From assembly GCA_016187515.1 (NCBI GenBank), contig JACPJN010000007.1:228778-292777 (forward strand): DNA of 64,000 nucleotides, read 5' to 3'. Source of the stretch: Candidatus Uhrbacteria bacterium (GTDB lineage Bacteria > Patescibacteriota > Patescibacteriia > GWA2-47-26). The position numbers and the translations under genes are program-made. Below the pieces are notes generated by a model. That model did not search any database. It worked only from the letters and a program-made list of their open reading frames with translations, and was not told the DNA's origin. Below are positions 5,347 to 41,978 of the stretch, one piece after another. Position 1 is the stretch's first letter. Each line of letters starts with the position of its first letter.

Positions 5347-5622
5347 CTAAGTTTTTGCACTTAATAAGTAGTGCTTTAATGCTTTATGCATATATCGGCG
5401 ACCCCAGCCAGTCTTAAAAAATTTCTCCCTTTGTTCGGCATCTTTTCGATGGGGATAAGCTTCATAGTAAATAAGCATAAATGGGGTGCGTGTTTTAGTG
5501 GCAAACGATAGTTTAGCATTATGTTCTCGTATTCTTTTCCGTAAATTATCCGTACATCCTATGTAGAATTTACCATCTTTGAGACTTCGTAGAATATACA
5601 CATACGAGAACATACGGTGCAA
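5347..5622 (-). CDS. GIY-YIG nuclease family small protein
   Basis: 91 aa. YVYILRSLKDGKFYIGCTDNLRKRIREHN is the GIY-YIG motif. Embedded inside the sugar operon. Confidence 0.7.
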   Translation of the reverse strand: MHRMFSYVYILRSLKDGKFYIGCTDNLRKRIREHNAKLSFATKTRTPFMLIYYEAYPHRKDAEQREKFFKTGWGRRYMHKALKHYLLSAKT

Positions 5623-14337: not shown

Positions 14338-14453
14338 AGATGAGTGTAATTGACCTAATTAACCTAAGTGCTCTAATTGACCTAAACAATAACCAATATT
14401 GGGATTTGGGACTTGTTTAGAATAATTAGGTTAATTAGAGTAATTAAAAATTC
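14338..14453. repeat. AT-rich intergenic palindromic element, family R subtype 1
   Basis: CTAATTGACCTAAACAATAACCAATATTGGGATTTGGGACTTGTTTAGAATAATTAGGTTAATTAGAG. Arms pair around a central ATTGGGATTT core. Fills the whole ugd-like/ahcY intergenic gap. Confidence 0.75.
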
Positions 14454-15917
14454 TCAAGTACCTTCCTCCCATGAACTCAAATACTTTCTTTGCTCCTCGG
14501 TTAATTCATCTTTGCGCACCTCCATTGCCTCAAGCTGCAACGCGGCAATGTCGTCATCTACTCTGGATGGTAACACATAGACCTTTGGCTCGAGTTTCCC
14601 CAGGTTCTCCACAAGATACGCACAAGCCAAAGCTTGCCCGCAAAATGAAAGCGACATCACCTCTGAAGGATGACCTTCTGCCGCGGCCAAATTCACCAGC
14701 CGCCCTTCGCCGGCGACATACAACACGCGGTCATCCGTCATCGGTTCACGGTTCACGGTTTGTGTTGATTTACTGTGAACTGTCGACTGTGAACTGTCGA
14801 CTGGCAAAGTATATTCATCCAGCATCGTCCGCACCGTCCGCACACCCTTTGCCATCTCCCGCAGTCCTTTCAAATCAATCTCCGCGTCAAAATGTCCGGA
14901 ATTGGCCAGAATCGCGCCGGATTTCATTTTAGAAAAATGCTCTGGACGCAAAACATGTTTGTCACCCGTAACCGTAATAAAAATATCGCCAAGCGTGGCG
15001 GCTTCCGCAAGCGGCATCACCCGAAATCCATCCATCACGGCTTGTAGTGCGCGAAACGCGTCAACTTCACACACAATCACATTTGATCCCATGCCGCGCG
15101 CGCGCAAAGCCACGCCTTTGCCGCAGGAACCGTAACCACACACGACCACGGTTTTGCCCGCCCACAAAATATTGGTCGCCCGCGTAATCCCATCCAGCGT
15201 GGATTGCCCGGTGCCATAGTAATTGTCCATCAGATGTTTGGTCTTATTGTCATTCACTGCTACAACCGGGTATTTAAGCGCGCCGTCGCGCTCCATCGCC
15301 CGCAAGCGGATAAGGCCTGTTGTGGTTTCCTCGGTCCCGCCAATTAAATTCGCAATAAACTCCGGGTGTTTTTTGTGAATTTCACCAACTAAATCCCCGC
15401 CATCGTCAATGGTGATCAAATTTCTCCCACCCCTCCTAGCCTCCCCTCGGGTCCCGGCTGCGGCCGAGGATCCTCGATTCTCGAGAATCGGGACAGGGGA
15501 GGAAATTGATTGTTCTCCCCCTCTTAGAGGGGGAGATTCAGAGGGGGTCCGAACCTCTACTTTCATGAACTCAATCACCCGATTTAGAAAATCGTAGTAT
15601 TCCTCATTACTCTCGCCCTTATGTGCAAATACGGCCACGCCTTCCTCCGCGAGCGCCGCCGCCACATCATCTTGAGTGGATAATGGATTACATCCGGTAA
15701 TCGCAACCTCGGCCCCGCCAGAGCGAAGCGTGCGCACCAGCACTGCGGTTTCTTTGGTCACATGCAAGGCCATACCGACAGTCACACCCGCCAATGGTTT
15801 TTCGCGCGCAAACCGCTTTCGCACTTCCAAAAGCGCGCCCATTCTACGTTCGGCTAATTCAATCTGCAGCCGCCCTTGCGGCGCAAGCGAAATGTCTTTT
15901 ACCTTGTATTGTTCCAT
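14454..15917 (-). CDS. ahcY: adenosylhomocysteinase carrying two in-frame repeat-element insertions
   Basis: ORF 14454..15947; probable start MEQYKVKDISLAPQGR. Conserved AhcY blocks (GCNPLSTQDDVAAAL, NAD site VVVCGYGSCGKGVA, HPSEVMSLSF). Inserted peptides SESPPLRGGEQSISSP...GEARRGG and PVDSSQSTVHSKSTQTVNREPM coincide with DNA repeat elements. Confidence 0.9.
   Translation of the reverse strand: MEQYKVKDISLAPQGRLQIELAERRMGALLEVRKRFAREKPLAGVTVGMALHVTKETAVLVRTLRSGGAEVAITGCNPLSTQDDVAAALAEEGVAVFAHKGESNEEYYDFLNRVIEFMKVEVRTPSESPPLRGGEQSISSPVPILENRGSSAAAGTRGEARRGGRNLITIDDGGDLVGEIHKKHPEFIANLIGGTEETTTGLIRLRAMERDGALKYPVVAVNDNKTKHLMDNYYGTGQSTLDGITRATNILWAGKTVVVCGYGSCGKGVALRARGMGSNVIVCEVDAFRALQAVMDGFRVMPLAEAATLGDIFITVTGDKHVLRPEHFSKMKSGAILANSGHFDAEIDLKGLREMAKGVRTVRTMLDEYTLPVDSSQSTVHSKSTQTVNREPMTDDRVLYVAGEGRLVNLAAAEGHPSEVMSLSFCGQALACAYLVENLGKLEPKVYVLPSRVDDDIAALQLEAMEVRKDELTEEQRKYLSSWEEGT
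14742..14802. repeat. CTGTGAACT-type tandem/inverted repeat (family Q) in-frame in ahcY
   Basis: CGGTTCACGGTTCACGG...CTGTGAACTGTCGACTGTGAACTGTCGAC. Encodes PVDSSQSTVHSKSTQTV. Confidence 0.75.
15425..15552. repeat. family P palindromic element inserted in-frame in ahcY
   Basis: ...CGATTCTCGAGAATCG (perfect palindrome) ...CCCCCTCTTAGAGGGGGAGATTCAGAGGGGGTCC. Encodes SESPPLRGGE...RGEARRGG inside AhcY. Confidence 0.75.
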
Positions 15918-15962
15918 AGTAAATAGTGAAGAAAATAATCCTAACAAATTATATGCCGAGCG

Positions 15963-16736
15963 TCAAAGTTTTTGAGCAATGAATTGCGGGAATTTCAACA
16001 CCCGTGCCCCTTGGTCCGGGCGAATCAACAACGGCTCAACTTCTTTGGCCAGCGCTTTAAAATCAAGTTTTCCGCAATAATCATACACTTGTTTAATCAA
16101 TTTGGAAACTGTCAAACCCATGGCCGCTTTTACATAATCTTCACTGGGTTGTGTAATTCCATACAAAAAACTCACATCATAAAAATCGCGTCCTTTTGTC
16201 CGCTTACGCTGTAAAATCGTGATTAATTTCTGCGCTAGCAAAATATCTTCCGGATTTACTAGCAGATCATAAAACAGATCAAATTTGTTGATGGTATGCG
16301 CACGCGGCGTAAACACTTTCTTTTGCGCCATACTCTCCATTTTAATAAGAATCTTTTCGCTCGCGTGATCACTTATTTTATGCTCATGCAGTAGATGGGG
16401 AAATTTGATGTAGCAATGATACGCGCCTTTTTCTAAAAATCTAAATTCAACCGTAAGGCCCTTACGTCTCATGTCGTCTATTACCTGGTTAAGCATGGCT
16501 TGAAATGCCGAAAAAGAAAGTCCAAAATTATCAAAATCAAGATCTTCGGAAAAGCGATTTCCTTGATAACATATCCGAATTGAGGTTCCGCCCATAAAAC
16601 TTAATTGCTCACTGCCTTTCTGTTTATACAGCGAATCCAGCAGTTCATATTGGAGATATTCAACCAGGACGCGGCGAGGCGAAATAAACTCTTCGTTTTT
16701 TGTATAGTGATCTTTTAACTGCGTGAAGGTGAACAT
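15963..16736 (-). CDS. nucleotidyltransferase AbiEii/AbiGii toxin family protein
   Basis: 257 aa. GGTSIRICYQGNRFSEDLDFD matches the AbiEii hG[GS]...DhD nucleotidyltransferase motif. Overlaps the upstream antitoxin gene by 22 nt. Confidence 0.8.
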   Translation of the reverse strand: MFTFTQLKDHYTKNEEFISPRRVLVEYLQYELLDSLYKQKGSEQLSFMGGTSIRICYQGNRFSEDLDFDNFGLSFSAFQAMLNQVIDDMRRKGLTVEFRFLEKGAYHCYIKFPHLLHEHKISDHASEKILIKMESMAQKKVFTPRAHTINKFDLFYDLLVNPEDILLAQKLITILQRKRTKGRDFYDVSFLYGITQPSEDYVKAAMGLTVSKLIKQVYDYCGKLDFKALAKEVEPLLIRPDQGARVLKFPQFIAQKL

Positions 16737-17335
16737 AGGGCAAGCAATTCGTTAACCAGCTGATCTAAACGCTTGGAGTGGAACTGCTTAACATATTTTT
16801 TAATCCGGGCGCGGTTTAAGGTGGTACTCATGGTTTCGTAATCAAACCGCATTCCCTCCAGGTCGTCGCGAGTCCGTATCGCGCGCGGGTTGAGATAAAA
16901 ATAATCCAGCAATGCTTTTTCAGGGTGCGCAAACAAATACTTACCATGCTTTGTCTCTATATCCCCATATCCCCAAAAAAGTTTGGGTACAATAGTACGG
17001 TAGCTAAACCTGCCAAATTGGTTCGCGATCGTCCGCGTTGGCCGCGTGGTTACCGAAGTGCACACTGCCACCATCTCTGGAATAAACCCATAGTGATGCA
17101 GCGCGTACTCTAAACTAATATAACTTGGTTCATACAGCAGAAACGCGACCTCCTCCGGTATCACCTCTTTCTTACGCGCGGTAAAGACAAAAATCCCGCG
17201 CTGAATTTTTTCAATATCACCCATGCCCTGCCAGCGCGAAAGTTGGTAATCCGGCACCTGGAGATTCCGAATACGCAATTCTGTCCTTGTAAAATAGGGC
17301 TTTTCTATGATTTTAGTAAATTCTCTATATTTCAT
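16715..17335 (-). CDS. type IV toxin-antitoxin system AbiEi family antitoxin
   Basis: 206 aa. Sits immediately upstream of and overlapping the AbiEii gene. N-terminal wHTH-like region (FTRTELRIRNLQVPDYQLSRW), the usual AbiEi architecture. Confidence 0.65.
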   Translation of the reverse strand: MKYREFTKIIEKPYFTRTELRIRNLQVPDYQLSRWQGMGDIEKIQRGIFVFTARKKEVIPEEVAFLLYEPSYISLEYALHHYGFIPEMVAVCTSVTTRPTRTIANQFGRFSYRTIVPKLFWGYGDIETKHGKYLFAHPEKALLDYFYLNPRAIRTRDDLEGMRFDYETMSTTLNRARIKKYVKQFHSKRLDQLVNELLALCSPSRS

Positions 17336-17675
17336 AAACTTAGCAAAAATGATAAGTTACTGAAATACTATAAAATTATCAAAGTCTTGTCAACTGTGGA
17401 TAAAAAAGCCGCCGTGGGGAATTAATCCCGTTGGCGGCAACGCGGCAGGTGCGTGCGACCTGTTATAGCTGTATGGCGGACTCACCCCGTCGGAGACCAC
17501 GAAAAACGGCGGGCGAATCAGTCGGGCATCCTCGCTCACCCGCGCTGACCCCAGATCAAAGAGCGATTCAATTCGCATTACGGCCTCCTTGACGATTGAA
17601 TAATCATCTGCTAACACCCTACCACTGCTCGCCTAAAATGTCAATGCATTGCACTCCCTACTCGACCTCTCCTCA

Positions 17676-18512
17676 CTACCAAATCAGTAACCCTATCCCC
17701 AATGCCAAAACGACAAAAGTCCCTAATTTAATGAGGAGATTTTTCTCATGAAAATATAAATTTCCGGAAAGTACGGACCAAAGTATTGCGGAAGCGCGTT
17801 TTACCGCGGTGATAATGGAAGCCGGAGCAAACACAAATGCAAAACTTTCGAGCGCCACCGCCACGCCCATACCCAGCGATTGCGCGATAAAAATCGGCTG
17901 ACGAAAAAAGCGGAACGGATTTTCATGGGCGCGATAATAGGCGTTTACGAAAAAATATGCCATCAGCACGAGCATAATTATCAACTGCTCAGCGACAACC
18001 GAGTTAAAATGAGTAATGTTGTACTTGTAAAGTGAGATGGTCGCCACGGCATTGACCGCGGTAAACAGCACATACCCGCGGCCTTCCCGCTCAATACCGT
18101 GATTAGCAAACAAAAATAGCAGCGTAATTACAATCAATCCAAGACCGGCGATTTGCGATAAAGACAGCGCATAGCCAAGAAAGACATCCACAACCAAAAG
18201 CAGGGGGATGGTCAGTGAGCGGATAAAACTAAAGGTACTGCGTGCGGCCAGCGCCGCGGCTTTAACCGTCAGATGCGCCTGCGCTACTTCAAGAACCAGC
18301 CGTGGAATAAAAGTAGCGAGCGAAGCGGCGACAAATCGAAAACTGCCCGGCACCAATAACGCGACAGCGAAAAAAGCCAGCACGACCCAGAAAAGATCCA
18401 GAAAGCCCCAGGTAAAAATGCTTTCCTGCCGCTCCGTAACTTTTTTCTTGCCAATCAGCTTGGAACATTCATCAAACAAAGTTCCCAAAGAAGCCAGTAA
18501 AATACCGATCAT
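17676..18512 (-). CDS. EamA/DMT-like multi-pass membrane protein
   Basis: 278 aa, about 9 hydrophobic helices, duplicated-half organisation typical of drug/metabolite transporters. Family call is tentative. Confidence 0.45.
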   Translation of the reverse strand: MIGILLASLGTLFDECSKLIGKKKVTERQESIFTWGFLDLFWVVLAFFAVALLVPGSFRFVAASLATFIPRLVLEVAQAHLTVKAAALAARSTFSFIRSLTIPLLLVVDVFLGYALSLSQIAGLGLIVITLLFLFANHGIEREGRGYVLFTAVNAVATISLYKYNITHFNSVVAEQLIIMLVLMAYFFVNAYYRAHENPFRFFRQPIFIAQSLGMGVAVALESFAFVFAPASIITAVKRASAILWSVLSGNLYFHEKNLLIKLGTFVVLALGIGLLIW

Positions 18513-19804
18513 AATTTTGAAATTAACCGCGTAAGATCCGCTGCGTAGGCCGGCGCGCCGGTGGCTCCGGGAGAGTTATAATTGAGGATGTGGAGCGAGC
18601 GCGGAGTTTGCGCTTCTACAACTTCCGGCACAAATCTGCCGTTGCGATCGATAAGCGAGGCGCGCACGCCGGCAGTGCCGCGCGCCACACAATCCGCCAC
18701 GCGAAGATCGGGCAAGAATTTCTGCACCCGCGCGACCATTGCGTCCTTTGATAAGGCGCTGCGCCACTCCTTACCGCACAAACGTAAAAATTCCGGATTG
18801 CGGAGTAATCGCAATTTGTTGGCCAGTGGTTTTTCAGTGAGCTTGCCAAGCACATTACCCACTCCGCGATAGGCATACGACCCAAACACCGGCACCGCGG
18901 ACGGACCAATTTCCACGCGCCCGTCCACGCGCACCACATAGTGCGGGTCAAGAAACGGAAAATCTGTGTGCCGTGGCACAGAGTACACATTACGCAATGC
19001 CAATCGTGCGCTCTCTCCTTCCACAATCAAATACTCCCCGCGAAAATTCAGATCCGCAAACTCTCGCGCCACTCCCATCAGGTGGGCGATCTTCAGCGCG
19101 GCTCCTCCGGCGCAATTCACCATATAGTGCGCTCGTAACCCCTCCTCGCCTCCCCTTACCCTAAGGGGAGGAACCTCGGCAAAATTCCCCCTCTTAAGGT
19201 AAGAGGGGGTAGGGGGAGTTATGAGTCGTTGATATAAAATATCCACTCCGTCCTTCTTCTCTACGATCTTTTTCACCTCACACCCAAACAAAAATTTCAC
19301 TCCTCTTTCTTCGGCATCATCCCGCAACGCTCGTGTGAATGCACCAAAATCTACGGCCGTATCTGTTGTGCAAAGTAAAGCACCTGCACACCAAGCGCTG
19401 GGTTCAATCTCGCGCACTTCTTCCGCACTCAAAAGCCGCACCTCGCTATCTCCCATCCCATTTTGAAGAGACCAAGCTTTATACTTCTTCAGCCGCGCGA
19501 GCTGCGCCTCATCAAGCGCCACCTCCAGCGTTCCCACCTCGCGCCAGGGCAAACCCTTGCGCGCCGCATACTCTTTCCAAAACTCGTACGACTCTTGCGC
19601 GCAGCGCGCAAACTTCCCCTTGCTGATCGGATCAAGATAAAACGGGCGGTGAATCACGCCCGTGTTTCTACTGCTGGTATGCCGCGCGACACCCTCTTCT
19701 TTTTCCACGACCACAATTCTCTCGCCTGGAATATGTTTGGACAACTGATAGGCAAGCGCTGTCCCCAAAATCCCCCCGCCAACAATAACAATATCATACT
19801 CCAT
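18509..19804 (-). CDS. FAD-dependent oxidoreductase (L-2-hydroxyglutarate oxidase/GlpA-like) with in-frame GC palindromic element insertion
   Basis: 431 aa. DIVIVGGGILGTALAYQL dinucleotide-binding motif. Inserted peptide TPPTPSYLKRGNFAEVPPLRVRGGEEG corresponds to the element at 19141..19226. Confidence 0.7.
   Translation of the reverse strand: MEYDIVIVGGGILGTALAYQLSKHIPGERIVVVEKEEGVARHTSSRNTGVIHRPFYLDPISKGKFARCAQESYEFWKEYAARKGLPWREVGTLEVALDEAQLARLKKYKAWSLQNGMGDSEVRLLSAEEVREIEPSAWCAGALLCTTDTAVDFGAFTRALRDDAEERGVKFLFGCEVKKIVEKKDGVDILYQRLITPPTPSYLKRGNFAEVPPLRVRGGEEGLRAHYMVNCAGGAALKIAHLMGVAREFADLNFRGEYLIVEGESARLALRNVYSVPRHTDFPFLDPHYVVRVDGRVEIGPSAVPVFGSYAYRGVGNVLGKLTEKPLANKLRLLRNPEFLRLCGKEWRSALSKDAMVARVQKFLPDLRVADCVARGTAGVRASLIDRNGRFVPEVVEAQTPRSLHILNYNSPGATGAPAYAADLTRLISKL
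19141..19226. repeat. family P palindromic element inserted in-frame in FAD oxidoreductase gene
   Basis: CTCCCCTTACCCTAAGGGGAG ... CCCCCTCTTAAGGTAAGAGGGGGTAGGGGGAGTTATGAG. Confidence 0.75.
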
Positions 19805-19823
19805 ATAATCCGTGTTCTATCCG

Positions 19824-20753
19824 TTATCTATCTGTGTCCTTCCGTGTCATGGTCTCATACCATTCCATGGTTCTTTTCAATCCTTCTTCAAACTCCACCT
19901 CCGGTTCCCACCCTAAAAGTTCTTTGGCGCGGGAAATATCCGCCAGAGTGTCATGCGGTTCAACTCTGGGCGGGATGTGCGTAGTTGGCCCGCCAATAAG
20001 TTTCGCCACCTGATTAACGCTGTAATTTACACCGGTCCCGATATTGATTGCCTCTCCGCTGCCTACGCTACTGGAATCCATGGCTAGTAAATTTGCGCGC
20101 ACAACATCGTCAACATGGGTAAAATCCCGCGTCTGGGTGCCATCACTGGTAATCGTCATTTCATAACCTTGCGCTTTTTGATCTAAAAAAATAGGAATCA
20201 CTAGTTTATAGGCGCCTTGAAGTGGCATCCGTGGGCCATAGACATTGAAATAACGCAGTGAAACTGTTTGTAATCCCCAAAAAATCGTGGCGAGTTTCAG
20301 ATATCCTTCTCCCACATATTTTTGCAACGCGTAGGGGCTTTTTGGATTGGGAAGAACATTCTCGGGTGTCGGTAGTATCAAGGTATCGCCATAGATTGAT
20401 GACGAGGAGGAAAACACTATGCGCCGGACCCCGGCGCGGGAAGAGGCCTGAATCACGTTAAGGGTGCCGGTAATATTGGCTTCATTCGATTCGAACGGAT
20501 TGTCAATAGATTCCTGCACGCGCGCGAGCGCTGCCGTATGAAATACTCCATCAATCCCATTAAAGGCCTTGGCCATTTTTTTTAGATCAGTAATACTGGC
20601 CTCAAACAACTCCGCTCCCGCGGGCACATTGCCGGGTTTACCGGTTGAAAAATTATCTAACACTCTGACTTTATCCCCACGCTTCAAAAGCGTCTCTGCG
20701 ATATGCGACCCGATAAACCCCGCACCGCCGGTTACCAAATATTGCTTCGCCAT
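19824..20753 (-). CDS. NAD-dependent epimerase/dehydratase family (UDP-sugar 4-epimerase-like)
   Basis: 309 aa. LVTGGAGFIGSHIAETLL Rossmann motif and YALQKYVGE catalytic Y-x3-K. Confidence 0.8.
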   Translation of the reverse strand: MAKQYLVTGGAGFIGSHIAETLLKRGDKVRVLDNFSTGKPGNVPAGAELFEASITDLKKMAKAFNGIDGVFHTAALARVQESIDNPFESNEANITGTLNVIQASSRAGVRRIVFSSSSSIYGDTLILPTPENVLPNPKSPYALQKYVGEGYLKLATIFWGLQTVSLRYFNVYGPRMPLQGAYKLVIPIFLDQKAQGYEMTITSDGTQTRDFTHVDDVVRANLLAMDSSSVGSGEAINIGTGVNYSVNQVAKLIGGPTTHIPPRVEPHDTLADISRAKELLGWEPEVEFEEGLKRTMEWYETMTRKDTDR

Positions 20754-20892
20754 ATTTGAAAAATTCCAATAAACAAGTTACAGATTACAAACAAATCCAA
20801 AATCCCAATATTCAATGTCCAAACTTGTAATTTGGAGATTGTGATTTCCTTGTAATTTGGTGCTTGGGATTTGGAATTTAAATCTTGCCATT
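20754..20892. repeat. AT-rich intergenic palindromic element, family R subtype 2
   Basis: ACAAACAAATCCAAAATCCCAATATTC...CTTGTAATTTGGAGATTGTGATTTCCTTGTAATTTGGTGCTTGGGATTTGGAATTT. Confidence 0.75.
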
Positions 20893-21849
<957 letters not shown>

Positions 21850-21851
21850 AT

Positions 21852-21940
21852 TGGGTAAATCAGGTGAATCAAGTAAATCATGCAAGTCAAGCTCTTGATT
21901 TACTTATCTCGCTTGCTTTACTTGATTTACTTCAATTAAG
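21852..21940. repeat. AATCAAGTAAAT / ATTTACTTGATT hairpin element, family S
   Basis: GTGAATCAAGTAAATCATGCAAGTCAAGCTCTTGATTTACTTATCTCGCTTGCTTTACTTGATTTACTTC. Creates a spurious N-terminal ORF extension of the kinase gene. Confidence 0.75.
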
Positions 21941-22042
21941 GTCTTCCAACTGAAATATAAGTAAAGCCCAACTCCCGCATCTTTTTAGGATCAAGAGGAT
22001 TGTTGCCGTCCACGACCACGGGATTGCGCATGCGGGCTTTTT

Positions 22043-23428
22043 TTATACCATTAACCTATCTTTCTCAACCAGCAGTACTTTTTCCTCGCGCGCGATTTTT
22101 TTCATATCCGCGGTAAAGCCGCTCTTGCTAAACAAAATATACCGCTCTTCCCTGCCCTCCAATCCCCAATCTACCAGTTGCGCTTTCTTTTTTAGCGACT
22201 CATAAATGTTCGTACCGACCGGCTTCTCTGACCACTTACACTCGCCTAAAAGAATTTGGTTTTCACGCTGATTGATTGCCACCACATCTATTTCTTCATT
22301 TTTATCCCACCATTTTCCAACCCGCTCGAAAGGAAATAACTGATCCTGCCAGGTAGGCGCTAATTCACGGCACACCTCCTCATATGCAATCGCAGTGAGC
22401 ATATTAAATTGCTCGCGGAATTTGCGTAGCACCTCATTATGCCGCCCGATTTCCAAATCGCTTTTATAGGGAAATACGTATTGAAACCAAAACCGGAAAA
22501 AATTATCGCAGAGACGATATAATCCTTTGCGGGATTTTACCGGATTTTTTTCCGTAACGGGTAATTCGCGCTCCACGATTAAAAGCTGGGCAAGCGTATG
22601 GAGATACTTATTGACGAGTGTTCTATCGATGCCGGTTTCATTGACAATTTCTCCGAGTTTGCGCTTGCCGAATGAAATGGCGCGCAGAATGGAAAGGTAA
22701 TTTTTCGGTTCGCGCAACTCTTCCTTGAGTACGAATTCTATTTCATTGTATAAAAATTCCGTTTTCGGTAACACATGCGCAACGAGATTTTCCTCCGCAC
22801 TCAAGAGCCCTTCCATCTGCATCAAGTATGCCGGCATACCGCCCACGACCGCATAGAATTCGAGGAAATCGACAAATGACATCTTGGGGAAAAATTGCCA
22901 ACTCTGAGAAAAGGAAAGGGGTTGCAAAAGCAGCTGCCCGGTCCTGCGCCCAAAAAGCGGCGCTTTCTGAATCAAGGTTTCCGATTCCATCATGGCAATG
23001 CTTGACCCCATCAATATCAACATACTCTGCTGTGCGCGCAAGTATTCATCCCACCCCTTTTGAAATACAGAACTTGCGGCCGAATCAACTTCTGCCAAAT
23101 ACGGAAATTCATCCACCACCAGGATGCAACGCTTCTTGCTGTTTCGTTGCAAGTACCGAAATACCTCCAGCCAATCGCCAAAACCCTGCTTCTCAATGAG
23201 GGGGTCGCCGAATGCCTCCCCTACTAAACGACTCACCTCGCGTAACTGGTCAATCATAGTGCGCTTATCCGCTAAAAAGTATATAGCCGGTTTTCCTTGA
23301 ATGAATTTTTTTACCAGTTCGGTTTTGCCTACACGCCGTTTGCCATACACGATAAAAAGTTCCGGTTTTCCGGACTTCCAGCGTTTTTCCAGATCAGCGA
23401 GTTCATTGGTGCGGTTAATGAAATTCAT
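22043..23428 (-). CDS. AAA+ ATP-binding protein (archaeal-ATPase/DUF234-type)
   Basis: 461 aa. Walker A YGKRRVGKTELV. Architecture typical of the stand-alone ATPase family often called 'ATP-binding protein'. Confidence 0.7.
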   Translation of the reverse strand: MNFINRTNELADLEKRWKSGKPELFIVYGKRRVGKTELVKKFIQGKPAIYFLADKRTMIDQLREVSRLVGEAFGDPLIEKQGFGDWLEVFRYLQRNSKKRCILVVDEFPYLAEVDSAASSVFQKGWDEYLRAQQSMLILMGSSIAMMESETLIQKAPLFGRRTGQLLLQPLSFSQSWQFFPKMSFVDFLEFYAVVGGMPAYLMQMEGLLSAEENLVAHVLPKTEFLYNEIEFVLKEELREPKNYLSILRAISFGKRKLGEIVNETGIDRTLVNKYLHTLAQLLIVERELPVTEKNPVKSRKGLYRLCDNFFRFWFQYVFPYKSDLEIGRHNEVLRKFREQFNMLTAIAYEEVCRELAPTWQDQLFPFERVGKWWDKNEEIDVVAINQRENQILLGECKWSEKPVGTNIYESLKKKAQLVDWGLEGREERYILFSKSGFTADMKKIAREEKVLLVEKDRLMV

Positions 23429-23488
23429 AGTTACCTTTTTACCTAGATAATTGTGCCGGAAAGGCCTTATTTGGCATCATAATTAATA

Positions 23489-23510
23489 GTATACTTGTGA
23501 GTATACTATT
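23489..23510. promoter_or_regulatory. candidate operator: perfect 9-bp dyad TAGTATACT-tgtg-AGTATACTA upstream of the AAA ATPase gene
   Basis: Seen directly at ...aattaaTAGTATACTtgtgAGTATACTAtttgtc..., 60-80 nt upstream of the minus-strand ATG at 23428. Confidence 0.35.
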
Positions 23511-23590
23511 TGTCAATGGGCCCCAAACCGGGGTATTTACAATGAAGAAATCCCTCGCCAGCTTTTTCCTCACATACGCCGCGTCCGCAG

Positions 23591-24979
23591 TCAAGGCCGG
23601 CCGACTGAAATGTATTGAAAACCCAGTAAACGCATCTTTTTTGCGTCAAGGAGATTGCGGCCGTCAAAAATAAACGGCTGGCGCATTTTTGTTTTCATTT
23701 CTGCCCACGGCAGATCGCGAAACTGCGGCCATTCGGTAAGCACAAGCACTGCATCGGCGCCTTCAGTGACTTCTTCGGGTGTTGGACATGTCACAAGCTC
23801 GGTGATCTCATGCCTTGCATTGGATTCTGCCTGATAATCAAATGCTTTTATTATCGCGCCTTCTTTCATGAGCAATCGTGTAATATCCAGAGCGGTTGAT
23901 TCCCGCACATCATCAGTATTATTTTTAAACGCCAGTCCCAGCACGCCAATCGTCTTGCCTTCCAGGGCACCAAGTATATCCCGCACACGGCGCACAAAGC
24001 GATGCCGCTGTTCCTGATTGACTTCGATCACGGCCTTGAGCAATTTAAAATCATAATCATGATTTAATGCGATATTGTGCAACGCCCGGGTATCTTTCGG
24101 AAAACACGATCCTGAATATCCTGTCCCGGCCTTGAGGAAGTGTGGGCCAATGCGGGGATCCATACCCATTCCGCGGGCTACTTCGTCTACATTCGCGCCG
24201 ACTTCGTCGCAGACATTGGCAATCTCATTGATAAAGGAAATTTTCGTGGCCAAAAACGCATTGCTGGCGTATTTAATCATTTCCGCAGTCGCAATATCCG
24301 TGACCACGCGCTCACCCGGCAATCCCTCATGCACTTTCAAAAGCGCGTCGCGCGCGCGATCCGAGTCCACCCCGATCACCACACGATCCGGATTCATGGT
24401 GTCATGCACGGCCGACCCTTCGCGCAAAAACTCCGGACAAGACGCCACGTCAAACTCAACCTGTGAACTGTGAACTGACGTCTGTGAACTAATCAATTTG
24501 CGCACTTTCTCCGCGGTCCCCACCGGAACCGTGCTTTTATCCGCGATAACTTTGTATCCCCCTCCCCTAACCCCTCCCACAAGGGGAGGGGGATTGCCGT
24601 TTACTTCCCCTCCCTCGATGGGAGGGGATTGAGGGGAGGGTGAGGGTCCCCAATTTTCCGCCACCTCACGCGCCGCGGCAAACACCTGGCTTAAATCCGC
24701 TTCGCCAGAAGGCAACGGCGGCGTGCCCACGCACAAGAAAATCACCTCGGCATTGGGCACGGCCTCGGCATACGACGTCGTGGGAATGAGCCGGCCGCTA
24801 ACCACGCCTTCGCGCACAAGTTCGGGCAGTCCGGGCTCATAAAACGGTACTTCTCCGCGACGGAGCTTCTTCACCTTGTCCGCATCTTTGCGCACGGCAT
24901 AAACCGTGTGCCCCAACTTGGCATACACTGCCGCAGAAGTAAGGCCAACGTAGCCCGCGCCGATAATCGCAATGCGCAT
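23591..24979 (-). CDS. ugd: UDP-glucose 6-dehydrogenase with two in-frame repeat insertions
   Basis: 462 aa. MRIAIIGAGYVGLTSAAVYAKLGH N-terminus and catalytic GGSCFPKD-like motif (GYSGSCFPKDTRAL). Inserts GPSPSPQSPPIEGGEVNGNPPPLVGGVRGGGYK (element 24556..24650) and SSQTSVHSSQ (24461..24490). Confidence 0.85.
   Translation of the reverse strand: MRIAIIGAGYVGLTSAAVYAKLGHTVYAVRKDADKVKKLRRGEVPFYEPGLPELVREGVVSGRLIPTTSYAEAVPNAEVIFLCVGTPPLPSGEADLSQVFAAAREVAENWGPSPSPQSPPIEGGEVNGNPPPLVGGVRGGGYKVIADKSTVPVGTAEKVRKLISSQTSVHSSQVEFDVASCPEFLREGSAVHDTMNPDRVVIGVDSDRARDALLKVHEGLPGERVVTDIATAEMIKYASNAFLATKISFINEIANVCDEVGANVDEVARGMGMDPRIGPHFLKAGTGYSGSCFPKDTRALHNIALNHDYDFKLLKAVIEVNQEQRHRFVRRVRDILGALEGKTIGVLGLAFKNNTDDVRESTALDITRLLMKEGAIIKAFDYQAESNARHEITELVTCPTPEEVTEGADAVLVLTEWPQFRDLPWAEMKTKMRQPFIFDGRNLLDAKKMRLLGFQYISVGRP
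24461..24490. repeat. family Q repeat in-frame in ugd
   Basis: CTGTGAACTGTGAACTGACGTCTGTGAACT. Encodes SSQTSVHSSQ. Confidence 0.75.
24556..24650. repeat. family P palindromic element inserted in-frame in ugd
   Basis: CCCCTCCCACAAGGGGAGGGG ... CCCCTCCCTCGATGGGAGGGGATTGAGGGGAGGGTGAGGGTCC. Confidence 0.75.
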
Positions 24980-26660: not shown

Positions 26661-26800
26661 AAGAAAAACAGGGAAAAATTCACCTAATTATCCTAATTGA
26701 CCTAATTATTCTAAACAATACCCAAACCCAAAATCCCAATTTTGGTGATTGGAAATTAGGATTTGTTTAGATCAATTAGAGTAATTAGGGCAATTAGAAA
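26661..26800. repeat. AT-rich intergenic palindromic element, family R subtype 1
   Basis: CACCTAATTATCCTAATTGACCTAATTATTCTAAACAATACCCAAACCCAAAATCCCAATTTTGGTGATTGGAAATTAGGATTTGTTTAGATCAATTAGAGTAATTAGGGCAATTAGAAATT. Abuts the hup stop and the FtsH-paralog start. Confidence 0.8.
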
Positions 26801-27080: not shown

Positions 27081-27170
27081 TTGGTGAGTTATTTAGTTAT
27101 TGGGTTATTAGTTATTAGTTATTAGTTATTTCTGCGCCAATTTTAATAACTTAATCACTTAATAACTTAA
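27081..27170. repeat. palindromic tandem heptamer element (GTTATTA)n / (AATAACTTAATCACTT)n
   Basis: GTTATTGGGTTATTAGTTATTAGTTATTAGTTATTtctgcgccaattttAATAACTTAATCACTTAATAACTTAATCACT, between ymdB stop and hup start. Confidence 0.8.
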
Positions 27171-28001
27171 TCACTCGATCACGATTTGCTCATCAATTCT
27201 TTTTATCGACTTTGCTAATTTAGTGGTTTCATTAATCTCCACCAGCACCGCGCTGATTTGACACAACCCGGTTTCCACTGGCGTGTGCTTGAATGGCTGT
27301 TGCAGTAGGAATGAGCGGATAATCCCATTTTTTTCTTCACCTAAAATTGAATCCACGGCTTGCACTCCGCCCACTTCGGTTACATACGCGGTGCCGCTGG
27401 GCAAAATGCGGGTGTCCGTCGTGCCCATCGAGGTATGCGTGCCCAGCACGGCGGAAACCCGGCCATCAGCGTAATTGCCCAAAGCATTAGCTTCGGAAGT
27501 GGCTTCACAGTGAAAGTCCACCAGAATGCCATTCAATTCTCCCCCTCTTAGGTTAAGAGGGGGCGGGGGGGAGTTATGATACCTCGCCAAAATCTCATCC
27601 AGCTTCCGAAATGGATCATCATACTGCGACTGAAAAAACACCCGGCCCATTAAGTTTACCACCAGCAGCCGAATTTTTCCATCTTTGCTTTCCACTACCA
27701 TATCGCCGCGTCCCGGCAAACCCGGCGGAAAATTGGCTGGCCGCACCAGCGGTAAATCTCCGCGAGCCATCAGCTTGGCCCCTTCGGCCTTAAACGAATG
27801 GTTGCCGCCCGTTACGCAATCCACTCCGGCATCCAAAAGTTCGCGCACGGTTTTTTCAGTCATGCCTACGCCATGCGCCAGATTTTCTCCATTGCCAATT
27901 ACAAAATCCGGCTTGTATTTCTTGCGCCAGCGCGGCAAGACCTCGGCCACGGCCCGCCGCCCGATTTTTCCGAAGATGTCGCCGATGAATATGATGCGCA
28001 T
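27171..28001 (-). CDS. ymdB: YmdB-family metallophosphoesterase (2',3'-cyclic-nucleotide phosphodiesterase) with in-frame palindromic insert
   Basis: 276 aa. MRIIFIGDIFGKIGRRAV...DFVIGNGENLAHGVG metallophosphatase motifs. Adjacent to rny. Inserted SPPPPLNLRGGE coincides with the element at 27541..27578. Confidence 0.8.
   Translation of the reverse strand: MRIIFIGDIFGKIGRRAVAEVLPRWRKKYKPDFVIGNGENLAHGVGMTEKTVRELLDAGVDCVTGGNHSFKAEGAKLMARGDLPLVRPANFPPGLPGRGDMVVESKDGKIRLLVVNLMGRVFFQSQYDDPFRKLDEILARYHNSPPPPLNLRGGELNGILVDFHCEATSEANALGNYADGRVSAVLGTHTSMGTTDTRILPSGTAYVTEVGGVQAVDSILGEEKNGIIRSFLLQQPFKHTPVETGLCQISAVLVEINETTKLAKSIKRIDEQIVIE
27541..27578. repeat. family P palindromic element (short copy) inserted in-frame in ymdB
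   Basis: CCCCCTCTTAGGTTAAGAGGGGGCGGGGGGGAGTTATGAT. Confidence 0.7.
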
Positions 28002-28244
28002 AAGTAAATAAGTTGTAAGTAGTAAGTAGTAAGTAGTGGTAAGTTACTTTTGAATTTTCTTCCAGCCATTGATTAGTTTAGCAGTTTCTTCTGTAACTTG
28101 GTACACCTCCAATGTCAATTCATGAGCTCTCTGCCATGCAATAATTTCACGAAATGTCTTGACCAATATAACTTACAACTTACTCACTTACTCACTTACT
28201 CACTTACTCACTTACTCACTTACTCACTTACTCACTTACTCACT
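28002..28244. repeat. palindromic tandem octamer element: (GTAAGTAG)n ... (CTTACTCA)x9
   Basis: 28003-28050 GTAAGTAGTAAGTAGTAAGTAGTGGTAAGTTAC and 28161-28244 TAACTTACAACTTACTCA(CTTACTCA)n. The two blocks are reverse complements. Spans the whole rny-ymdB intergenic region and generates spurious ORF 28098..28349. Confidence 0.8.
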
Positions 28245-29768
28245 TTAGCGCGCATACTCCACCACCCGCGTCTCCCGAATCACGTTAACCTTCACCTCGC
28301 CGGGATATTGCATCTCGGCTTCGATCCGTTTCGCCACATTTTTGGCTAACTCATAGGCCGACAGGTCGTCAATCTCCTGGGGCTTGACAAAGACCCGCAG
28401 CTCGCGGCCGGCCTGAATCGCGTAGGCATGTTCAACGCCGGGAAAGGCAGTGGCAATTTTTTCCAAATCCTCCAGGCGTTTGACATAGTCCTCGGCGGAT
28501 TCGCGCCGCGCGCCCGGCCTGGAACCGGAGATCGCGTCAGCCACTTTTACGATAATCCCTTCCAGCGTCTTCGGATTGTCTTCATGGTGGGCAATGGCCA
28601 TGTACGCGATATTTTCCGGAAAATTGAATTTCTTCATCAGCTCATAGCCCAAGTGCGTGTGCGCGCCTTTCATGTCCTGATCAATCGCTTTGCCGATATC
28701 ATGGAACAGTCCGCCTTTTTTACAAATGCTCACATCCGCGCCCAGCTCCTCGGCTAAAAGCGTGGCGAGATAGCCCACTTCGGTGGAATGCACTAGGACA
28801 TTTTGACCATAACTCGTGCGATATTTAAGGCGGCCCAGGATGGAGACCATCTTCGGATCAATTCCGGTAATCCCCATTTCATAAAGTACGTCGTCGCCGG
28901 CTTTACGAATGTCCAGCGCGAGTTCCTGGCGGGCTTCTTCCACTTTCTCTTCAATGCGCGCCGGATGAATCCGTCCATCCGCGATGAGTTTATCCAAAGC
29001 GCGCTTGGCCACTTGCCGGCGGATCGGCGAAAATCCGGAAACCGTCAAGGCATTCGGGGTCTCATCAATAATCACGTCAATTCCGGTCAACCGCTCCAGG
29101 GTCTTGATATTCCGGCCTTCTTTTCCAATAATGCGCCCTTTCATTTCATCGGAGGGCAGCGGCACGACGGTAGTGTTAATATCGGAGGCGTGGGAGGCCG
29201 CGATACGCTGGACCGCGGTGGCGACCATGGTCCGGGCTTGGCGATCCAGCTCTTCTTGAGTAGTCCCCTGCAGTTTGCGAATCCGGGTTATCAATTCTTC
29301 TTGGCTATCCTCTTCCACTTTCTTTAAAAGCTCGGCAACGGCTTGCTCGCGGGTCAGTCCGGCCACGGTTTGCAGCCGCTCGATCGCTTGCTGGCGCACT
29401 TGTTCGATCTGCGCTTTAACCCCCTCCACCTGCTTTAATTTTTCTTGCAGTTTTTCTTGCTTATCTTCAAGCTCCAGGAGTTTTTTATCAAACGTTCCCT
29501 CGCGGTCAACCAACCGCTGCTTCTCCACCCGCAACTCTTTGCGTACGGTCTCTTCTTCGGCCTTGGCTTTATCAATAATGACAATACTCTTCTCCCGGGC
29601 TTGAAGAAGAATCTCCTGCTCTTTGGACTTGGCCTCCGCGACGATTTTTTCGGCTTTGGCTTCGGCGCTATGCGCGAGCGTCGCGGCGCGGCTCTTGCGC
29701 AGATACCAGCCGATGGCGGCGCCGATGGCCAGCGCCCCGAGTGTCGAAAGAATGGTAATCAATGACAT
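28245..29768 (-). CDS. rny: ribonuclease Y
   Basis: ORF 28245..29804. Probable start MSLITILSTLGALAIG (N-terminal TM anchor) at 29768. Long coiled-coil, KH domain (GRIIGKEGRNIKTLE), HD domain (HSTEVGYLA...HDIGKA). Confidence 0.9.
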   Translation of the reverse strand: MSLITILSTLGALAIGAAIGWYLRKSRAATLAHSAEAKAEKIVAEAKSKEQEILLQAREKSIVIIDKAKAEEETVRKELRVEKQRLVDREGTFDKKLLELEDKQEKLQEKLKQVEGVKAQIEQVRQQAIERLQTVAGLTREQAVAELLKKVEEDSQEELITRIRKLQGTTQEELDRQARTMVATAVQRIAASHASDINTTVVPLPSDEMKGRIIGKEGRNIKTLERLTGIDVIIDETPNALTVSGFSPIRRQVAKRALDKLIADGRIHPARIEEKVEEARQELALDIRKAGDDVLYEMGITGIDPKMVSILGRLKYRTSYGQNVLVHSTEVGYLATLLAEELGADVSICKKGGLFHDIGKAIDQDMKGAHTHLGYELMKKFNFPENIAYMAIAHHEDNPKTLEGIIVKVADAISGSRPGARRESAEDYVKRLEDLEKIATAFPGVEHAYAIQAGRELRVFVKPQEIDDLSAYELAKNVAKRIEAEMQYPGEVKVNVIRETRVVEYAR

Positions 29769-29810
29769 AGGACTGGGAGGGACGGGATAGTATTGCAACA
29801 CCACAAGAAT

Positions 29811-29858
29811 CTCTCCCCCTTAGGATAAGGGGGAGCAAGAGGGGGTTACGAACCCTCA
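29811..29858. repeat. family P palindromic element in rny 5' region
   Basis: TCCCCCTTAGGATAAGGGGGAGCAAGAGGGGGTTACGAACCC, about 40 nt upstream of the rny start codon. Confidence 0.65.
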
Positions 29859-35760: not shown

Positions 35761-35844
35761 GCCGAGATGGCGGAATTGGCAGACGCACTGGGTTTAGGAC
35801 CCAGCGATCGCAAGATCATGGGAGTTCAAATCTCCCTCTCGGCA
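35761..35844 (+). tRNA. tRNA-Leu (anticodon TAG)
   Basis: GCCGAGATGGCGGAATTGGCAGACGCACTGGGTTTAGGACCCAGCGATCGCAAGATCATGGGAGTTCAAATCTCCCTCTCGGCA. 7-bp acceptor stem, anticodon loop TTTAGGA, long variable arm, T-arm GGAGTTCAAATCTCC. No encoded CCA. Confidence 0.85.
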
Positions 35845-35910: not shown

Positions 35911-36120
35911 TTAAGGGGACTGTTGCGCAGTGCGCTTTCGTAGCGAAAGGTAAGAATTTCGAGCGAGCCGAAGCAAAAATTATGAAGCATATACGGAGTA
36001 TCTGTTGAGTAATTTTTGCAAAGGCGCAGCCGAAATTCTTACCTTGCAGTAGAAATTTGCAAAGGCGCAGCCGAAATTCTTACCTTGCAGTAGAAATGGC
36101 ACTGCGCAACAGTCCCCTAA
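35911..36120. mobile_element. MITE-like structured element: 19-bp perfect terminal inverted repeats (GGGGACTGTTGCGCAGTGC) enclosing two tandem 42-bp hairpin units
   Basis: TIRs at 35911-35929 and 36099-36120. Internal direct repeat TTGCAAAGGCGCAGCCGAAATTCTTACCTTGCAGTAGAAAT x2 (about 36011-36097); each unit is itself a hairpin. A third solo copy of TTTAAGGGACTGTTGCGCAGTGC lies at 40880-40903. Confidence 0.55.
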
Positions 36121-36737: not shown

Positions 36738-37238
36738 ATGACTCGCTTCACTCTTAAGAATGAACAACAAACTCTTGCGCTGGCCCGCCGCCTTGCCCGT
36801 ACGCTCCGCGGCGGGGACGTCTTGTTATTGCAAGGCGAGCTTGGCGCGGGCAAAACCACTTTTGTCCGCGGCTTGGCCCGCGCGCTTGGCGTGCGCAGCC
36901 GCATCAAAAGCCCGACTTTTACGCTAATACATGTGCATGAATTGGCTAAGGGCAAAGAGCATAGGGCTAAGGGCACTTTGCACAAAACTCTAAGCTCTAA
37001 GCTCTACGCTCTACGCTACCTCGTGCATTGCGATGCTTATCGGATAAAGCGCGCGCGCGAATTACGCGATGCGGGCCTCATGGACTGGCTTGGCCGACCC
37101 GACACGCTCGTGGTCGTAGAGTGGGGAGAAAAAATAAAACCGCTTCTTAAGGGGCGGCGATATATCCTGATCAAATTTGAGCATGGAGAACAAGGGAACC
37201 AGAGAATCATCAAAATGATGGCCTCTCTGCAGAGTTAG
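36738..37238 (+). CDS. tsaE: tRNA threonylcarbamoyladenosine biosynthesis protein TsaE (YjeE P-loop ATPase) with in-frame tandem-repeat insertion
   Basis: 166 aa. [22 protein letters not shown] Walker A and SPTFTL block. About 25 extra residues ([25 protein letters not shown]) encoded by tandem DNA repeats at 36941-37020 (gctaagggca / ctctaagctctacgct). Confidence 0.8.
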
Positions 37239-41877: not shown

Positions 41878-41886
41878 ATTTATGGA

Positions 41887-41970
41887 GTGAATCAAGTAAA
41901 TCAAGCGAGGCATGTAAATCAAGGGCCTGATTTACCTGATTTACCTGATTTACTTATCTTACTTAATTTA
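41887..41970. repeat. family S hairpin element
   Basis: GTGAATCAAGTAAATCAAGCGAGGCATGTAAATCAAGGGCCTGATTTACCTGATTTACCTGATTTACTTATCTTACTTAATTTAC. Confidence 0.75.
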
Positions 41971-41978
41971 CACCACCA

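Follow-up and report, generated by a model that had tools for sequence, protein, structure and literature searches.

How do several conserved bacterial enzymes come to contain nearly the same short tandem repeat, each time in frame? This question is raised by a 64,000-nucleotide stretch of DNA from a Candidatus Uhrbacteria bacterium (assembly GCA_016187515.1, contig JACPJN010000007.1, positions 228,778 to 292,777 of the forward strand), which is referred to as the window and which belongs to the candidate phyla radiation (CPR), or Patescibacteria. In this window, ahcY, a gene for a PfkB-family kinase and ugd each contain a copy of a repeat built of 7-nt units, which is called the Q element here. 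These insertions are probably translated copies of a widespread, normally intergenic heptamer-hairpin repeat that have been kept in CPR genes after passing a translation filter. All evidence is computational and derives from metagenome assemblies. The coordinates of the features discussed are listed in Table 1.

The repeat is strongly over-represented in the window. The sequence CTGTGAACT has 8 exact matches, whereas dinucleotide-preserving shuffles give an expectation of 0.24 and none of 100 such shuffles attains 8. All matches are located on the plus strand in three clusters (14773-14795, 21454-21483 and 24461-24490). As GTGAAC by itself occurs just as often as expected (22 vs. 22), the signal resides in the tandem arrangement, and Tandem Repeats Finder (TRF) indeed detects a period of 7 at all Q sites. 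The three sites lie inside minus-strand open reading frames (ORFs) that match the Pfam families AdoHcyase, PfkB and UDPG/MGDP dehydrogenase, and PDB searches agree on the hosts, i.e., S-adenosylhomocysteine hydrolase, a PfkB/adenosine-kinase-like kinase and UDP-glucose dehydrogenase. Judged by its alignment with orthologs, the true start of the PfkB-family gene is probably the MILISGS at about 21849. Tandem repeats in frame in these three genes had been proposed in an earlier inspection of the DNA, and this original prediction is confirmed. Its coordinates hold for ugd (24461-24490), but the PfkB array covers 21454-21483 and not 21451-21483, and the AhcY insertion covers 14739-14804. Likewise, the decapeptide SSQ(S/T)(T/S)VHSSQ predicted for all three proteins is found in PfkB and Ugd, but not in AhcY, where the peptide is VDSSQSTVHSKSTQTVNREPM. 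The nearest relatives of the three proteins in the protein database are 70-78% identical, and the alignments that had been suggested as a check agree with an insertion: the Q peptides were not found in orthologs at this level of identity.

Tandem arrays are a more general feature of this DNA. Arrays with periods of 7, 8 and 9 nt occur 8, 3 and 5 times in the window vs. 0.25, 0.1 and 0 times in shuffles, periods of 4-6 nt are near chance and periods of 10-12 nt are absent. The intergenic arrays come as inverted pairs, resulting in hairpins with tandem-repeat arms. The insert in ahcY has this same architecture, but within a gene.

The AhcY copy is the complete, two-arm form of the element. Its coding-strand sequence is (C)AGTCGAC AGTTCAC AGTCGAC AGTTCAC, followed by an A-rich loop and by ACCGTGA ACCGTGA ACCGATG, the arm that is prone to stop codons. 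In a syntenic Uhrbacteria sequence (L001/P0004) the site is empty, which delimits a clean 66-nt block between ...TAT ACT TTG and ACG GAT GAC..., and many other AhcY orthologs carry nothing at this site. A direct repeat flanking the insertion was not found; the tandem GATGACG/GATGACC beside the element is present on one side only. Candidate junction-spanning peptides of the inserts are ...LPVDSSQSTVHSK and QFSSQSTVHSSQLLK. The hairpin that had been predicted from the inverted CGGTTCACGGTTCACGG partner does form, but chiefly on the strand antisense to ahcY, with a folding energy of -30.6 kcal/mol (z = -4.2) compared to -17.1 kcal/mol (z = -1.3) for the mRNA strand. Owing to its G residues, the stop-prone arm forms G.U wobbles in the antisense strand and is mismatched (A.C) in the mRNA. 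Among the matches listed, the TVNREP peptide of this arm and the two-arm architecture are also present in L013, L017, L066 and 18 low-GC metagenome copies.

The copies in the PfkB and ugd genes consist of a single arm of four heptamers plus 2 nt, and are 94% identical to each other over 32 nt. The PfkB copy, which reads AGTTCAC AGTCGAC AGTTCAC AGTTCAC AG on the coding strand, is present as an identical 30-mer in the DNA polymerase I (Pol I) gene of another CPR genome (L071). An Ugd ortholog from an independent assembly (P0246/L003, 75% identical) has AGTTTAC AGTTCAC AGTTCAC AGT at the same codon position, amounting to 24 nt or 3 units plus 3 nt, vs. 4 units plus 2 nt in the window. As far as the alignment goes, this shows that Q-type heptamers hold the same Ugd site in a second lineage, either by descent or by recurrence. 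Because L003 was assembled independently, an assembly artefact is disfavoured for the Ugd repeat.

Two other heptamer families are represented in genes of the window. The PfkB gene additionally contains the array (TTTTCCA)x4 encoding WKMENGKWKM, which is confirmed at 21130-21159 as originally predicted. A third array in this gene that is reported by TRF (21584-21614, 75% matches) was rejected as an insertion, because the encoded residues align gaplessly with orthologs. The fourth host gene is tsaE (36738-37238, plus strand). Its product counts 147 residues compared to 123 positions of the Pfam profile, i.e., about 24 extra, and it probably contains a translated heptamer insert in the form of a two-arm hairpin of a third family. 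The tsaE element and the PfkB codons for RAKG (about 21600-21611, where they encode native residues) share the 12-mer AGGGCTAAGGGC.

Contrary to what the original prediction could suggest, the Q element is confined neither to this genome nor to genes, and is part of a cross-phylum family that is normally intergenic. In a scan of one genome per species, the 21-mer GTGAACTGNCGNCTGTGAACT gives 93 matches in at least 81 loci from many phyla, where our own estimate of the chance expectation, assuming equiprobable bases, is about 4. The loci belong to Acidobacteriota, Chloroflexota, Actinomycetota, Planctomycetota, Bacteroidota, Gemmatimonadota, Omnitrophota and Patescibacteria and include a few cultured isolates, and the two-arm form is found in at least 120 metagenome contigs. 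The flanking units, which are free of search-pattern bias, give the consensus G-T-[G/C/T]-A-A-C-T. The family can be written as GT[G/C]AACT on one strand and AGTT[C/G]AC on the other, and the coding-strand units in the window are AGTTCAC and AGTCGAC. In the genome-scan matches, periodicity continues for exactly two further units and vanishes at the fifth, so an arm consists of four heptamers (28 nt); four units is also the modal array (27 of 73 loci). An inverted partner is missing in 55 of these 73 arrays. Of the second arms that were found, 17 are positioned upstream of the GTGAACT arm and one downstream of it, which means that the polarity of the hairpin is fixed. One irregular order of units, GTGAACT GTGAACT GTCGACT GTGAACT, is found in identical form in genes that are unrelated to each other, and also in another genome (L071). 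Since size and polarity are fixed and irregular orders recur, the element is a discrete module and not an open-ended microsatellite. Judged by these sequence properties, the Q copies are shown to belong to a dispersed, cross-phylum heptamer-hairpin family. This family is not represented in Rfam: apart from a tRNA (35761-35844), the window has no match, and the hairpins remain unmatched even at E-values up to 1. A maintained palindromic core, with compensatory changes between GTCGAC and GACGTC, was considered and rejected, as the free positions in the 93 matches are TA in 45, TG in 18, AA in 9 and CA in 9, among other pairs. In other phyla, several intergenic arrays adjoin tRNA genes or terminator-like hairpins (L008, L010, L011, L026 and L056).

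Whether the hairpins occur inside genes depends on the host. This was evaluated with the listed metagenome copies, 109 of which are in high-GC contigs and 28 in low-GC, CPR-like contigs. In the high-GC contigs, 33 of the 109 copies lie in open frames of at least 150 aa, compared to 84% of random windows from the same contigs. For the low-GC contigs these values are 21 of 28 and 65%, with the reservation that the classification uses stop-to-stop frames, so some of the low-GC copies counted as within an ORF may precede the start codon. Of the 21 low-GC copies in such open frames, 18 have the frame on the strand opposite to the GTGAACT arm. Classified in this way, the copies show that the hairpins avoid genes in high-GC phyla and do not do so in low-GC CPR-like contigs. 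Predominantly intergenic placement thus holds for high-GC phyla, but fails in the window, where all three Q copies are genic. Also in the genome scan, all five CPR matches are located deep within long ORFs. According to Pfam, the hosts comprise RadA (two sites), AlaRS, LeuRS, DnaX, CarB, UvrD, three GT4 glycosyltransferases, Pol I (with the insert beside the QVHDE motif) and a 5'-3' exonuclease (two sites). Independent assemblies have similar inserts at orthologous sites, not only in Ugd (L003) but also in DnaX (L089/L112) and RadA (L108/L163). A single protein can carry several Q-type elements: a glycosyltransferase-like ORF of 1539 aa in L110 (Ga0209541_10001800) has at least four, and the RadA of L108 has two, each at a site that is singly occupied in other lineages.

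The copies inside genes show what appear to be marks of translation. An array of GTGAACT has TGA in every frame within three units, while AGTTCAC is open in all frames, and in each of the in-gene copies among the matches listed, the coding strand carries AGTTCAC. The same argument, in which stop codons determine repeat orientation, has been made by MacGregor for TAACTGA repeats (PMC4679880). The Q DNA is read in different frames by its hosts, giving SSQSTVHSSQ, QFTVDSSQFT, VHSSQFTVHS or QFTVVSSQFT, which indicates that the DNA and not the peptide is the conserved entity. In two-arm copies, the stop-prone arm is in the sole frame that tolerates two units, ACC GTG AAC CGT GAA CCN, encoding TVNREP/L. 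The third unit would give ...CCG TGA, and it is altered at exactly those bases, to ATA, AAA, ACA, TCA or TTA (ATG in the window), while the GTTNNCN scaffold goes on. Runs of at least three TGA-bearing units are absent from the 18 listed in-gene copies and present in 27 of the 77 listed intergenic copies (Fisher p = 0.0025).

A further difference concerns RNA structure. In the stop-prone arm, GGTTCAC replaces AGTTCAC in 26 of the 28 listed low-GC copies vs. 22 of the 109 high-GC copies, so that A.C mismatches arise in the mRNA while the opposite strand pairs through G.U wobbles. The antisense fold is the more stable one in 18 of 18 listed in-gene copies, with a mean of -31.0 kcal/mol compared to -19.3 kcal/mol for the mRNA strand. 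The listed intergenic copies are nearly symmetric (-39.0 vs. -36.4 kcal/mol; in-gene vs. intergenic, Mann-Whitney p = 1.6e-6). The weak mRNA hairpin may be caused by selection against stable structure in translated mRNA, acting through transitions that leave a wobble on the opposite strand. Alternatively, a hairpin at the DNA level may be retained on one strand.

The inserts are predicted to lie in surface loops, outside the core elements of the enzymes. In AlphaFold models that were built on ortholog alignments, the AhcY Q insert (residues 382-406) forms a turn between the strands E376-381 and E407-412 with a predicted local distance difference test (pLDDT) score below 50. The PfkB Q peptide is placed in a connector before strand E149-154, and WKMENGKWKM at the tip of a beta-hairpin (E239-244/E250-255). 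These predicted positions match breaks in the alignments with PDB homologs; for AhcY, the break is between residues 334 and 337 of 7zd8. The orthologous loops at the Q positions are hypervariable and hold other repeat-derived peptides, both G-rich ones of a different type, named P (PSPHPLPRGEGGRR and APQPPLNLRGG), and heptamer-type ones such as NVKLKMQNVKC and CRMKNAE. The PfkB gene of L001 has (ATAGGGC)2...(GCCCTAA)3 at the Q loop, and a (GAAATTC)4...(AGTTTCC)4 hairpin where the window has (TGGAAAA)4. P-type inserts are G-rich hairpin repeats of the form CCCCTCCC...GGGGAGGGG and encode PSPSPQSPPIEGGE...GGVRGG-like segments. In the window, they are present in AhcY (residues ~122-176, window 15430-15570, pLDDT below 50) and in Ugd (residues ~111-143, window 24556-24650), so that ahcY and ugd each hold both a P-type and a Q-type insert, as had been noticed before. 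The LeuRS of a different Uhrbacteria (L057) contains a near-identical P peptide, SPSPQSSPIKGEEAIGNPPPLVGGVRGG, and in orthologs P-type inserts are situated at the very loops that are occupied by Q in the window. These observations support the suggested general tolerance of repeats in coding DNA throughout this lineage.

The explanation that is put forward here starts from a module consisting of a four-heptamer arm (28 nt), often combined with an inverted four-unit arm over a loop of 10-35 nt, which forms an imperfect hairpin. In Uhrbacteria and other CPR/Patescibacteria, copies would also land in, or be generated within, coding genes. They would appear to arrive as ready-made four-unit or two-arm modules and not by local growth, either through a trans-acting enzyme or, plausibly and without any enzyme, through template switching or gene conversion between dispersed arrays. 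A copy would only be retained when it adds a number of nucleotides divisible by three (30 or 66 nt in the window), when the long arm is oriented with the stop-free AGTTCAC on the coding strand, when the stop-prone arm has at most two TGA-bearing units and a mutated third one, and when the protein segment at the site is a surface loop or a beta-turn. After that, the element would simply be translated as a short hydrophilic loop rich in Ser, Thr and Gln, while the enzyme keeps working. Subsequently, in-gene copies would have lost most of the hairpin stability of the mRNA strand by U-to-C type changes, leaving G.T wobbles on the other strand. Loops that took up one repeat would later be re-occupied or remodelled by others, and the copies themselves would be neutral or slightly deleterious passengers instead of functional modules. 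A bolder claim is possible but decidedly more tentative, namely that the four-unit GT[G/C]AACT hairpin, with its fixed arm length and polarity and its absence from phage contigs, is a mobile, cross-phylum element with a CPR subfamily that is adapted to essential genes and repeatedly re-occupies permissive loops. This subfamily would be free of stops and weak as a hairpin in the mRNA, yet maintained on the opposite DNA strand as a hairpin with G.T wobbles.

Several observations weigh against a dispersed module that enters genes. Among the 55 ORFs of the 64-kb window, Pfam annotation reveals no transposase, integrase, HUH enzyme or REP-associated tyrosine transposase (RAYT). Neither the AhcY site nor an alignment of 14 in-gene copies revealed a target-site duplication, a target motif or an extra terminal feature, and carriage by phages was not seen (0 matches in 2.9 million viral contigs). 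Presence/absence polymorphism between strains was not found either, the nearest relatives being at most 78% identical. For PfkB and Ugd, the host loops are variable in every ortholog and offer no clean empty site, and the net gain compared to PDB homologs is only about 3 aa, which would be compatible with local remodelling as well. The Ugd ortholog differs by 6 nt and not by whole units, meaning that local slippage plus compensation does occur. Moreover, native sequence adjoining the AhcY insert (ACC GAT GGC at the empty site) resembles a unit of the element (ACCGATR). This resemblance, at one site, hints at microhomology-guided copying or at a local origin. Finally, that the inserts are translated is deduced from frame and stop avoidance.

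The rival that gains most from these points is a local origin, in which slippage acts on a chance duplication of a heptamer, the inverted arm arises by intramolecular template switching and the similarity between sites reflects convergence. Heptamers are over-represented among long prokaryotic simple sequence repeats (SSRs), for which an explanation based on the polymerase footprint has been proposed (Mrazek, 2007, cited in PMC4679880 and PMC4692102). The different unit number at the orthologous Ugd site (24 vs. 30 nt), the unit-like native flanks (ACCGATGG adjoining the insert in AhcY and, at a distance of 12 nt from the array in PfkB, GTGAAG) and the lack of an inverted partner in 55 of the 73 genome-scan arrays point in the same direction. 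Nevertheless, a local origin is judged unlikely. It does not predict that an exact irregular unit order recurs in unrelated genes and in another genome, that arm length is fixed at four units instead of being broadly spread, or that a two-arm module with an A-rich loop and a TVNREP arm returns in unrelated proteins of distant CPR lineages. In addition, steps of 7 nt would frameshift essential genes at each intermediate, and the AhcY copy is a clean 66-nt block. For the simple slipped-strand insertion that had been considered as a mechanism, the modal four-unit arm, the recurring irregular orders and this block make a poor fit. Hairpin-mediated insertion, the other mechanism that had been suggested, would be a putative route only, as neither a target-site duplication (AhcY site and 14 aligned in-gene copies) nor a mobilising enzyme (55 ORFs of the window) was found.

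The arrays could also be contingency loci, in which a gene is switched on or off because adding or losing a single unit alters the reading frame. Their unit length is not a multiple of three, and Ugd and its neighbours form a surface-polysaccharide and nucleotide-sugar cluster, the usual setting of phase variation. Such a role is nonetheless very improbable. With four units, the arrays are short, and slippage is suppressed by the variant units that interrupt them. Moreover, the hosts include essential single-copy genes (DnaX, AlaRS, LeuRS, Pol I, CarB and AhcY) for which switching off would be lethal, and only copies in the ON frame are seen. Length polymorphism was not found between L001 and L002, two strains of a related Uhrbacteria that are 99.8% identical and differ by N-gaps and scaffolding breaks, not by repeat length. 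A little less credible still is selection for the peptide itself, with SSQSTVHSSQ as a convergently acquired S/T/Q-rich loop that serves for modification or interaction. The peptide is hydrophilic, is placed in exposed loops of the models and is the same decapeptide in several proteins. However, the same DNA is read in other frames elsewhere, the sequence is abundant in non-coding DNA of other phyla, and the orthologous loops bear unrelated repeat-derived peptides or nothing. The least credible option is that the inserts are assembly chimeras, or that they are bypassed in translation or removed before the mature protein is formed. Short repeats confuse assemblers and all data come from metagenomes. 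There is also a precedent for bypass, as yeast mitochondrial hairpin elements ("byps") are skipped during translation. Yet none of the copies breaks the frame or contains a stop codon, and they show specific changes that avoid stops, all of which would be needless in a skipped or artefactual sequence. In addition, independent assemblies of different samples have the same kind of insert at orthologous sites. With 30-66 nt, the inserts are furthermore much smaller than an intein or a group I/II intron could be, and no Rfam family matches them.

If the preferred reading is correct, the inserts have implications beyond this window. Unexplained lineage-specific insertions abound in CPR/Patescibacteria proteins, and one class of them is tied here to a concrete DNA source; should the mobile-element interpretation be true as well, repeat invasion would be a major source of such insertions. 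The family can be regarded as a natural experiment, with one element in two regimes, in which selection on a translated repeat takes the form of stop avoidance, loss of mRNA structure and restriction to loops. It also relates to an older puzzle, the occurrence of heptamer repeats with a shared core in unrelated phyla without a known vector, for which the fixed four-unit arm and the fixed polarity provide testable constraints on any mechanism. On the practical side, annotation, alignment and phylogeny of CPR marker proteins can be led astray by the inserts, which also point to loops in enzymes where additions are tolerated.

Table 1. Positions of repeat elements, their host genes and related hairpins in the window (position 1 is the first nucleotide of the stretch).
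Feature	Position	Strand	Basis
Two-arm Q element in ahcY, 66 nt (22 codons), encodes PVDSSQSTVHSKSTQTVNREPM	14739..14804	-	filled vs. empty site
Stop-prone arm of the AhcY element, CGGTTCACGGTTCACGG; coding strand ACCGTGAACCGTGAACCG = TVNREP	14742..14758	+	
Four-unit arm of the AhcY element, (ACT)GTGAACT GTCGACT GTGAACT GTCGACT GG; coding strand is the stop-free AGTTCAC/AGTCGAC array	14772..14804	+	
Single-arm Q element in PfkB gene, 4 heptamers + 2 nt = 30 nt, encodes SSQSTVHSSQ	21454..21483	-	
Single-arm Q element in ugd, 30 nt, encodes SSQTSVHSSQ, variant unit GACGTCT	24461..24490	-	
Different heptamer family in PfkB gene, (TGGAAAA)x4+2 = 30 nt, encodes WKMENGKWKM	21130..21159	-	
Probable two-arm heptamer hairpin of a third family in tsaE, (ATAGGGC TAAGGGC)...(CTCTAAG x2, CTCTACG x2)	36961..37017	+	tandem-array scan
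Host gene ahcY (S-adenosylhomocysteine hydrolase)	14454..15947	-	Pfam, PDB, ortholog alignment
Host gene, PfkB-family (adenosine-kinase-like) kinase	20893..21885	-	Pfam, PDB, ortholog alignment
Host gene ugd (UDP-glucose 6-dehydrogenase family)	23591..24979	-	Pfam, PDB, ortholog alignment
Further P-type repeats, several of the P-type set inside genes	452-487, 19186-19238, 27540-27593, 29812-29842, 34982-35026		
Intergenic hairpin just downstream of ahcY, tandem 9-mer arms (TAATTGACC)n...(TTAGGTCAA-like)n	14347..14446	.	
Similar hairpins	20754-20892, 21855-21932, 26677-26798, 27087-27175, 28009-28245		
Similar hairpins, continued	41886-41971, 47567-47640, 50165-50280, 59941-60045		

Other repeats and unusual genes are present in the window and in a related Uhrbacteria sequence (L001). 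One of the intergenic hairpins contains a perfect 8-mer array, (ACTTACTC)x8.5 at 28178-28245, which directly adjoins the gene for RNase Y (28245-29804, minus strand) at its start. Bridging some 140 nt, this array pairs with (TAAGTAG)x4 at 28009-37, and the fold amounts to -73 kcal/mol for the minus strand vs. -51 kcal/mol for the plus strand. In the spacer beside the tRNA gene at 35761-35844, the 41-nt unit TTTGCAAAGGCGCAGCCGAAATTCTTACCTTGCAGTAGAAA is perfectly duplicated in tandem (36015-36097), and weak copies of this unit are found at 18747 and 44095; the GC content rises to 0.60 at 36-40 kb of the window. A non-tandem hairpin repeat is the 41-nt near-perfect palindrome TGTCCCAAAATCTCACGGCCGTGAGATTTTGGGACA, with two copies that are 95% identical (54309-54349 and 60668-60708). 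The IF-2 gene (56055-59651, plus strand) is split by an intein (Pfam Intein_splicing at 223-716 and LAGLIDADG_3 at 518-586), and the Ugd ortholog of L001/L002 has an intein as well. AbiEii-type toxin ORFs or fragments are interspersed among housekeeping genes (15963-16736, 52050-52679 and 54960-55574), one of them directly upstream of ahcY. Additionally, there is a PIN-domain ORF (46026-46586) and a small GIY-YIG ORF (5347-5622). In L001, an (AAATCCG)n heptamer array is located inside the LeuRS coding region (~6290-6320), and this LeuRS has an unexpected alpha/beta-hydrolase Pfam match in the middle of the protein.

The Q element shares properties with several known repeat systems. No description of the GT[G/C]AACT unit or of a two-arm module with fixed polarity was found in the searchable literature, nor of heptamer hairpins inside CPR genes, although this is weak evidence as the search excluded most subscription journals. 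Resemblances to the core sites of integron attC, the heptamers of V(D)J recombination (CACAGTG) and the target sites of IS200/IS605 were rejected because the sequences do not fit. The contingency loci of Haemophilus and Neisseria are likewise intragenic tandem repeats with a unit that is not a multiple of three, but the Q arrays are short, interrupted and located in housekeeping genes, and length switching was not found (L001/L002).

Another comparison is with repetitive extragenic palindromes (REPs) and the bacterial interspersed mosaic elements (BIMEs), the REP doublets (REPINs) mobilised by RAYTs (Y1 HUH enzymes), and miniature transposable elements with inverted repeats (MITEs) such as Correia and Nezha. 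Like the Q element, these are short, abundant, non-autonomous, hairpin-forming and mostly extragenic, and some REP/MITE-type repeats are fused to ORFs (PMC3184786). The Q arms, however, are composed of tandem GT[G/C]AACT units without a GTAG head, and no RAYT was found among the 55 ORFs of the window. The Q elements also differ from MITEs in having no terminal inverted repeats with target-site duplication, and their internally tandem-repetitive arms are not a property of REPs or MITEs.

Long heptamer SSRs are known from several groups, among which the short tandemly repeated repetitive (STRR) sequences of cyanobacteria, the TAACTGA repeats of Beggiatoaceae, Cyanobacteria and Bacteroidetes (PMC4679880) and the GGGAATC repeats of Xanthomonas (PMC4692102). 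They share with the Q family the tandem 7-nt units, the over-representation, the mostly intergenic location and the patchy spread across phyla without a known vector. In Xanthomonas, GGGAATC has a modal array of four units as well, and occasionally forms inverted pairs (PMC4692102). For TAACTGA, stop codons dictate the orientation inside ORFs (PMC4679880). Read as ACTGATA, this unit has the ACTG junction in common with ...GTGAACTGTGAACT... arrays. The described cases of these SSRs differ in being located mainly at gene peripheries or in hypothetical ORFs, whereas Q copies are found deep in conserved enzymes, at loops, and the CPR subfamily described here has translation-adapted features.

Rickettsia palindromic elements (RPEs) measure about 105-146 bp (Ogata et al., 2000, reviewed in PMC3184786). 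RPEs are dispersed palindromic repeats that are in frame in unrelated conserved genes and also occur in non-coding DNA (PMC3184786). Their translation adds a segment on the protein surface and leaves the protein intact, which compares to the predicted loop position of the Q sites. The Q copies are in-frame insertions in unrelated hosts too, with no counterpart in orthologs and with an empty site in the case of AhcY. RPEs are restricted to Rickettsia and are not built of heptamers, unlike Q modules, which are 30-66 nt long, consist of 7-nt units and occur in many phyla. On the basis of these sequence comparisons, RPEs are the closest analogue of the Q element in behaviour, and the long heptamer SSRs are the closest in sequence organisation.

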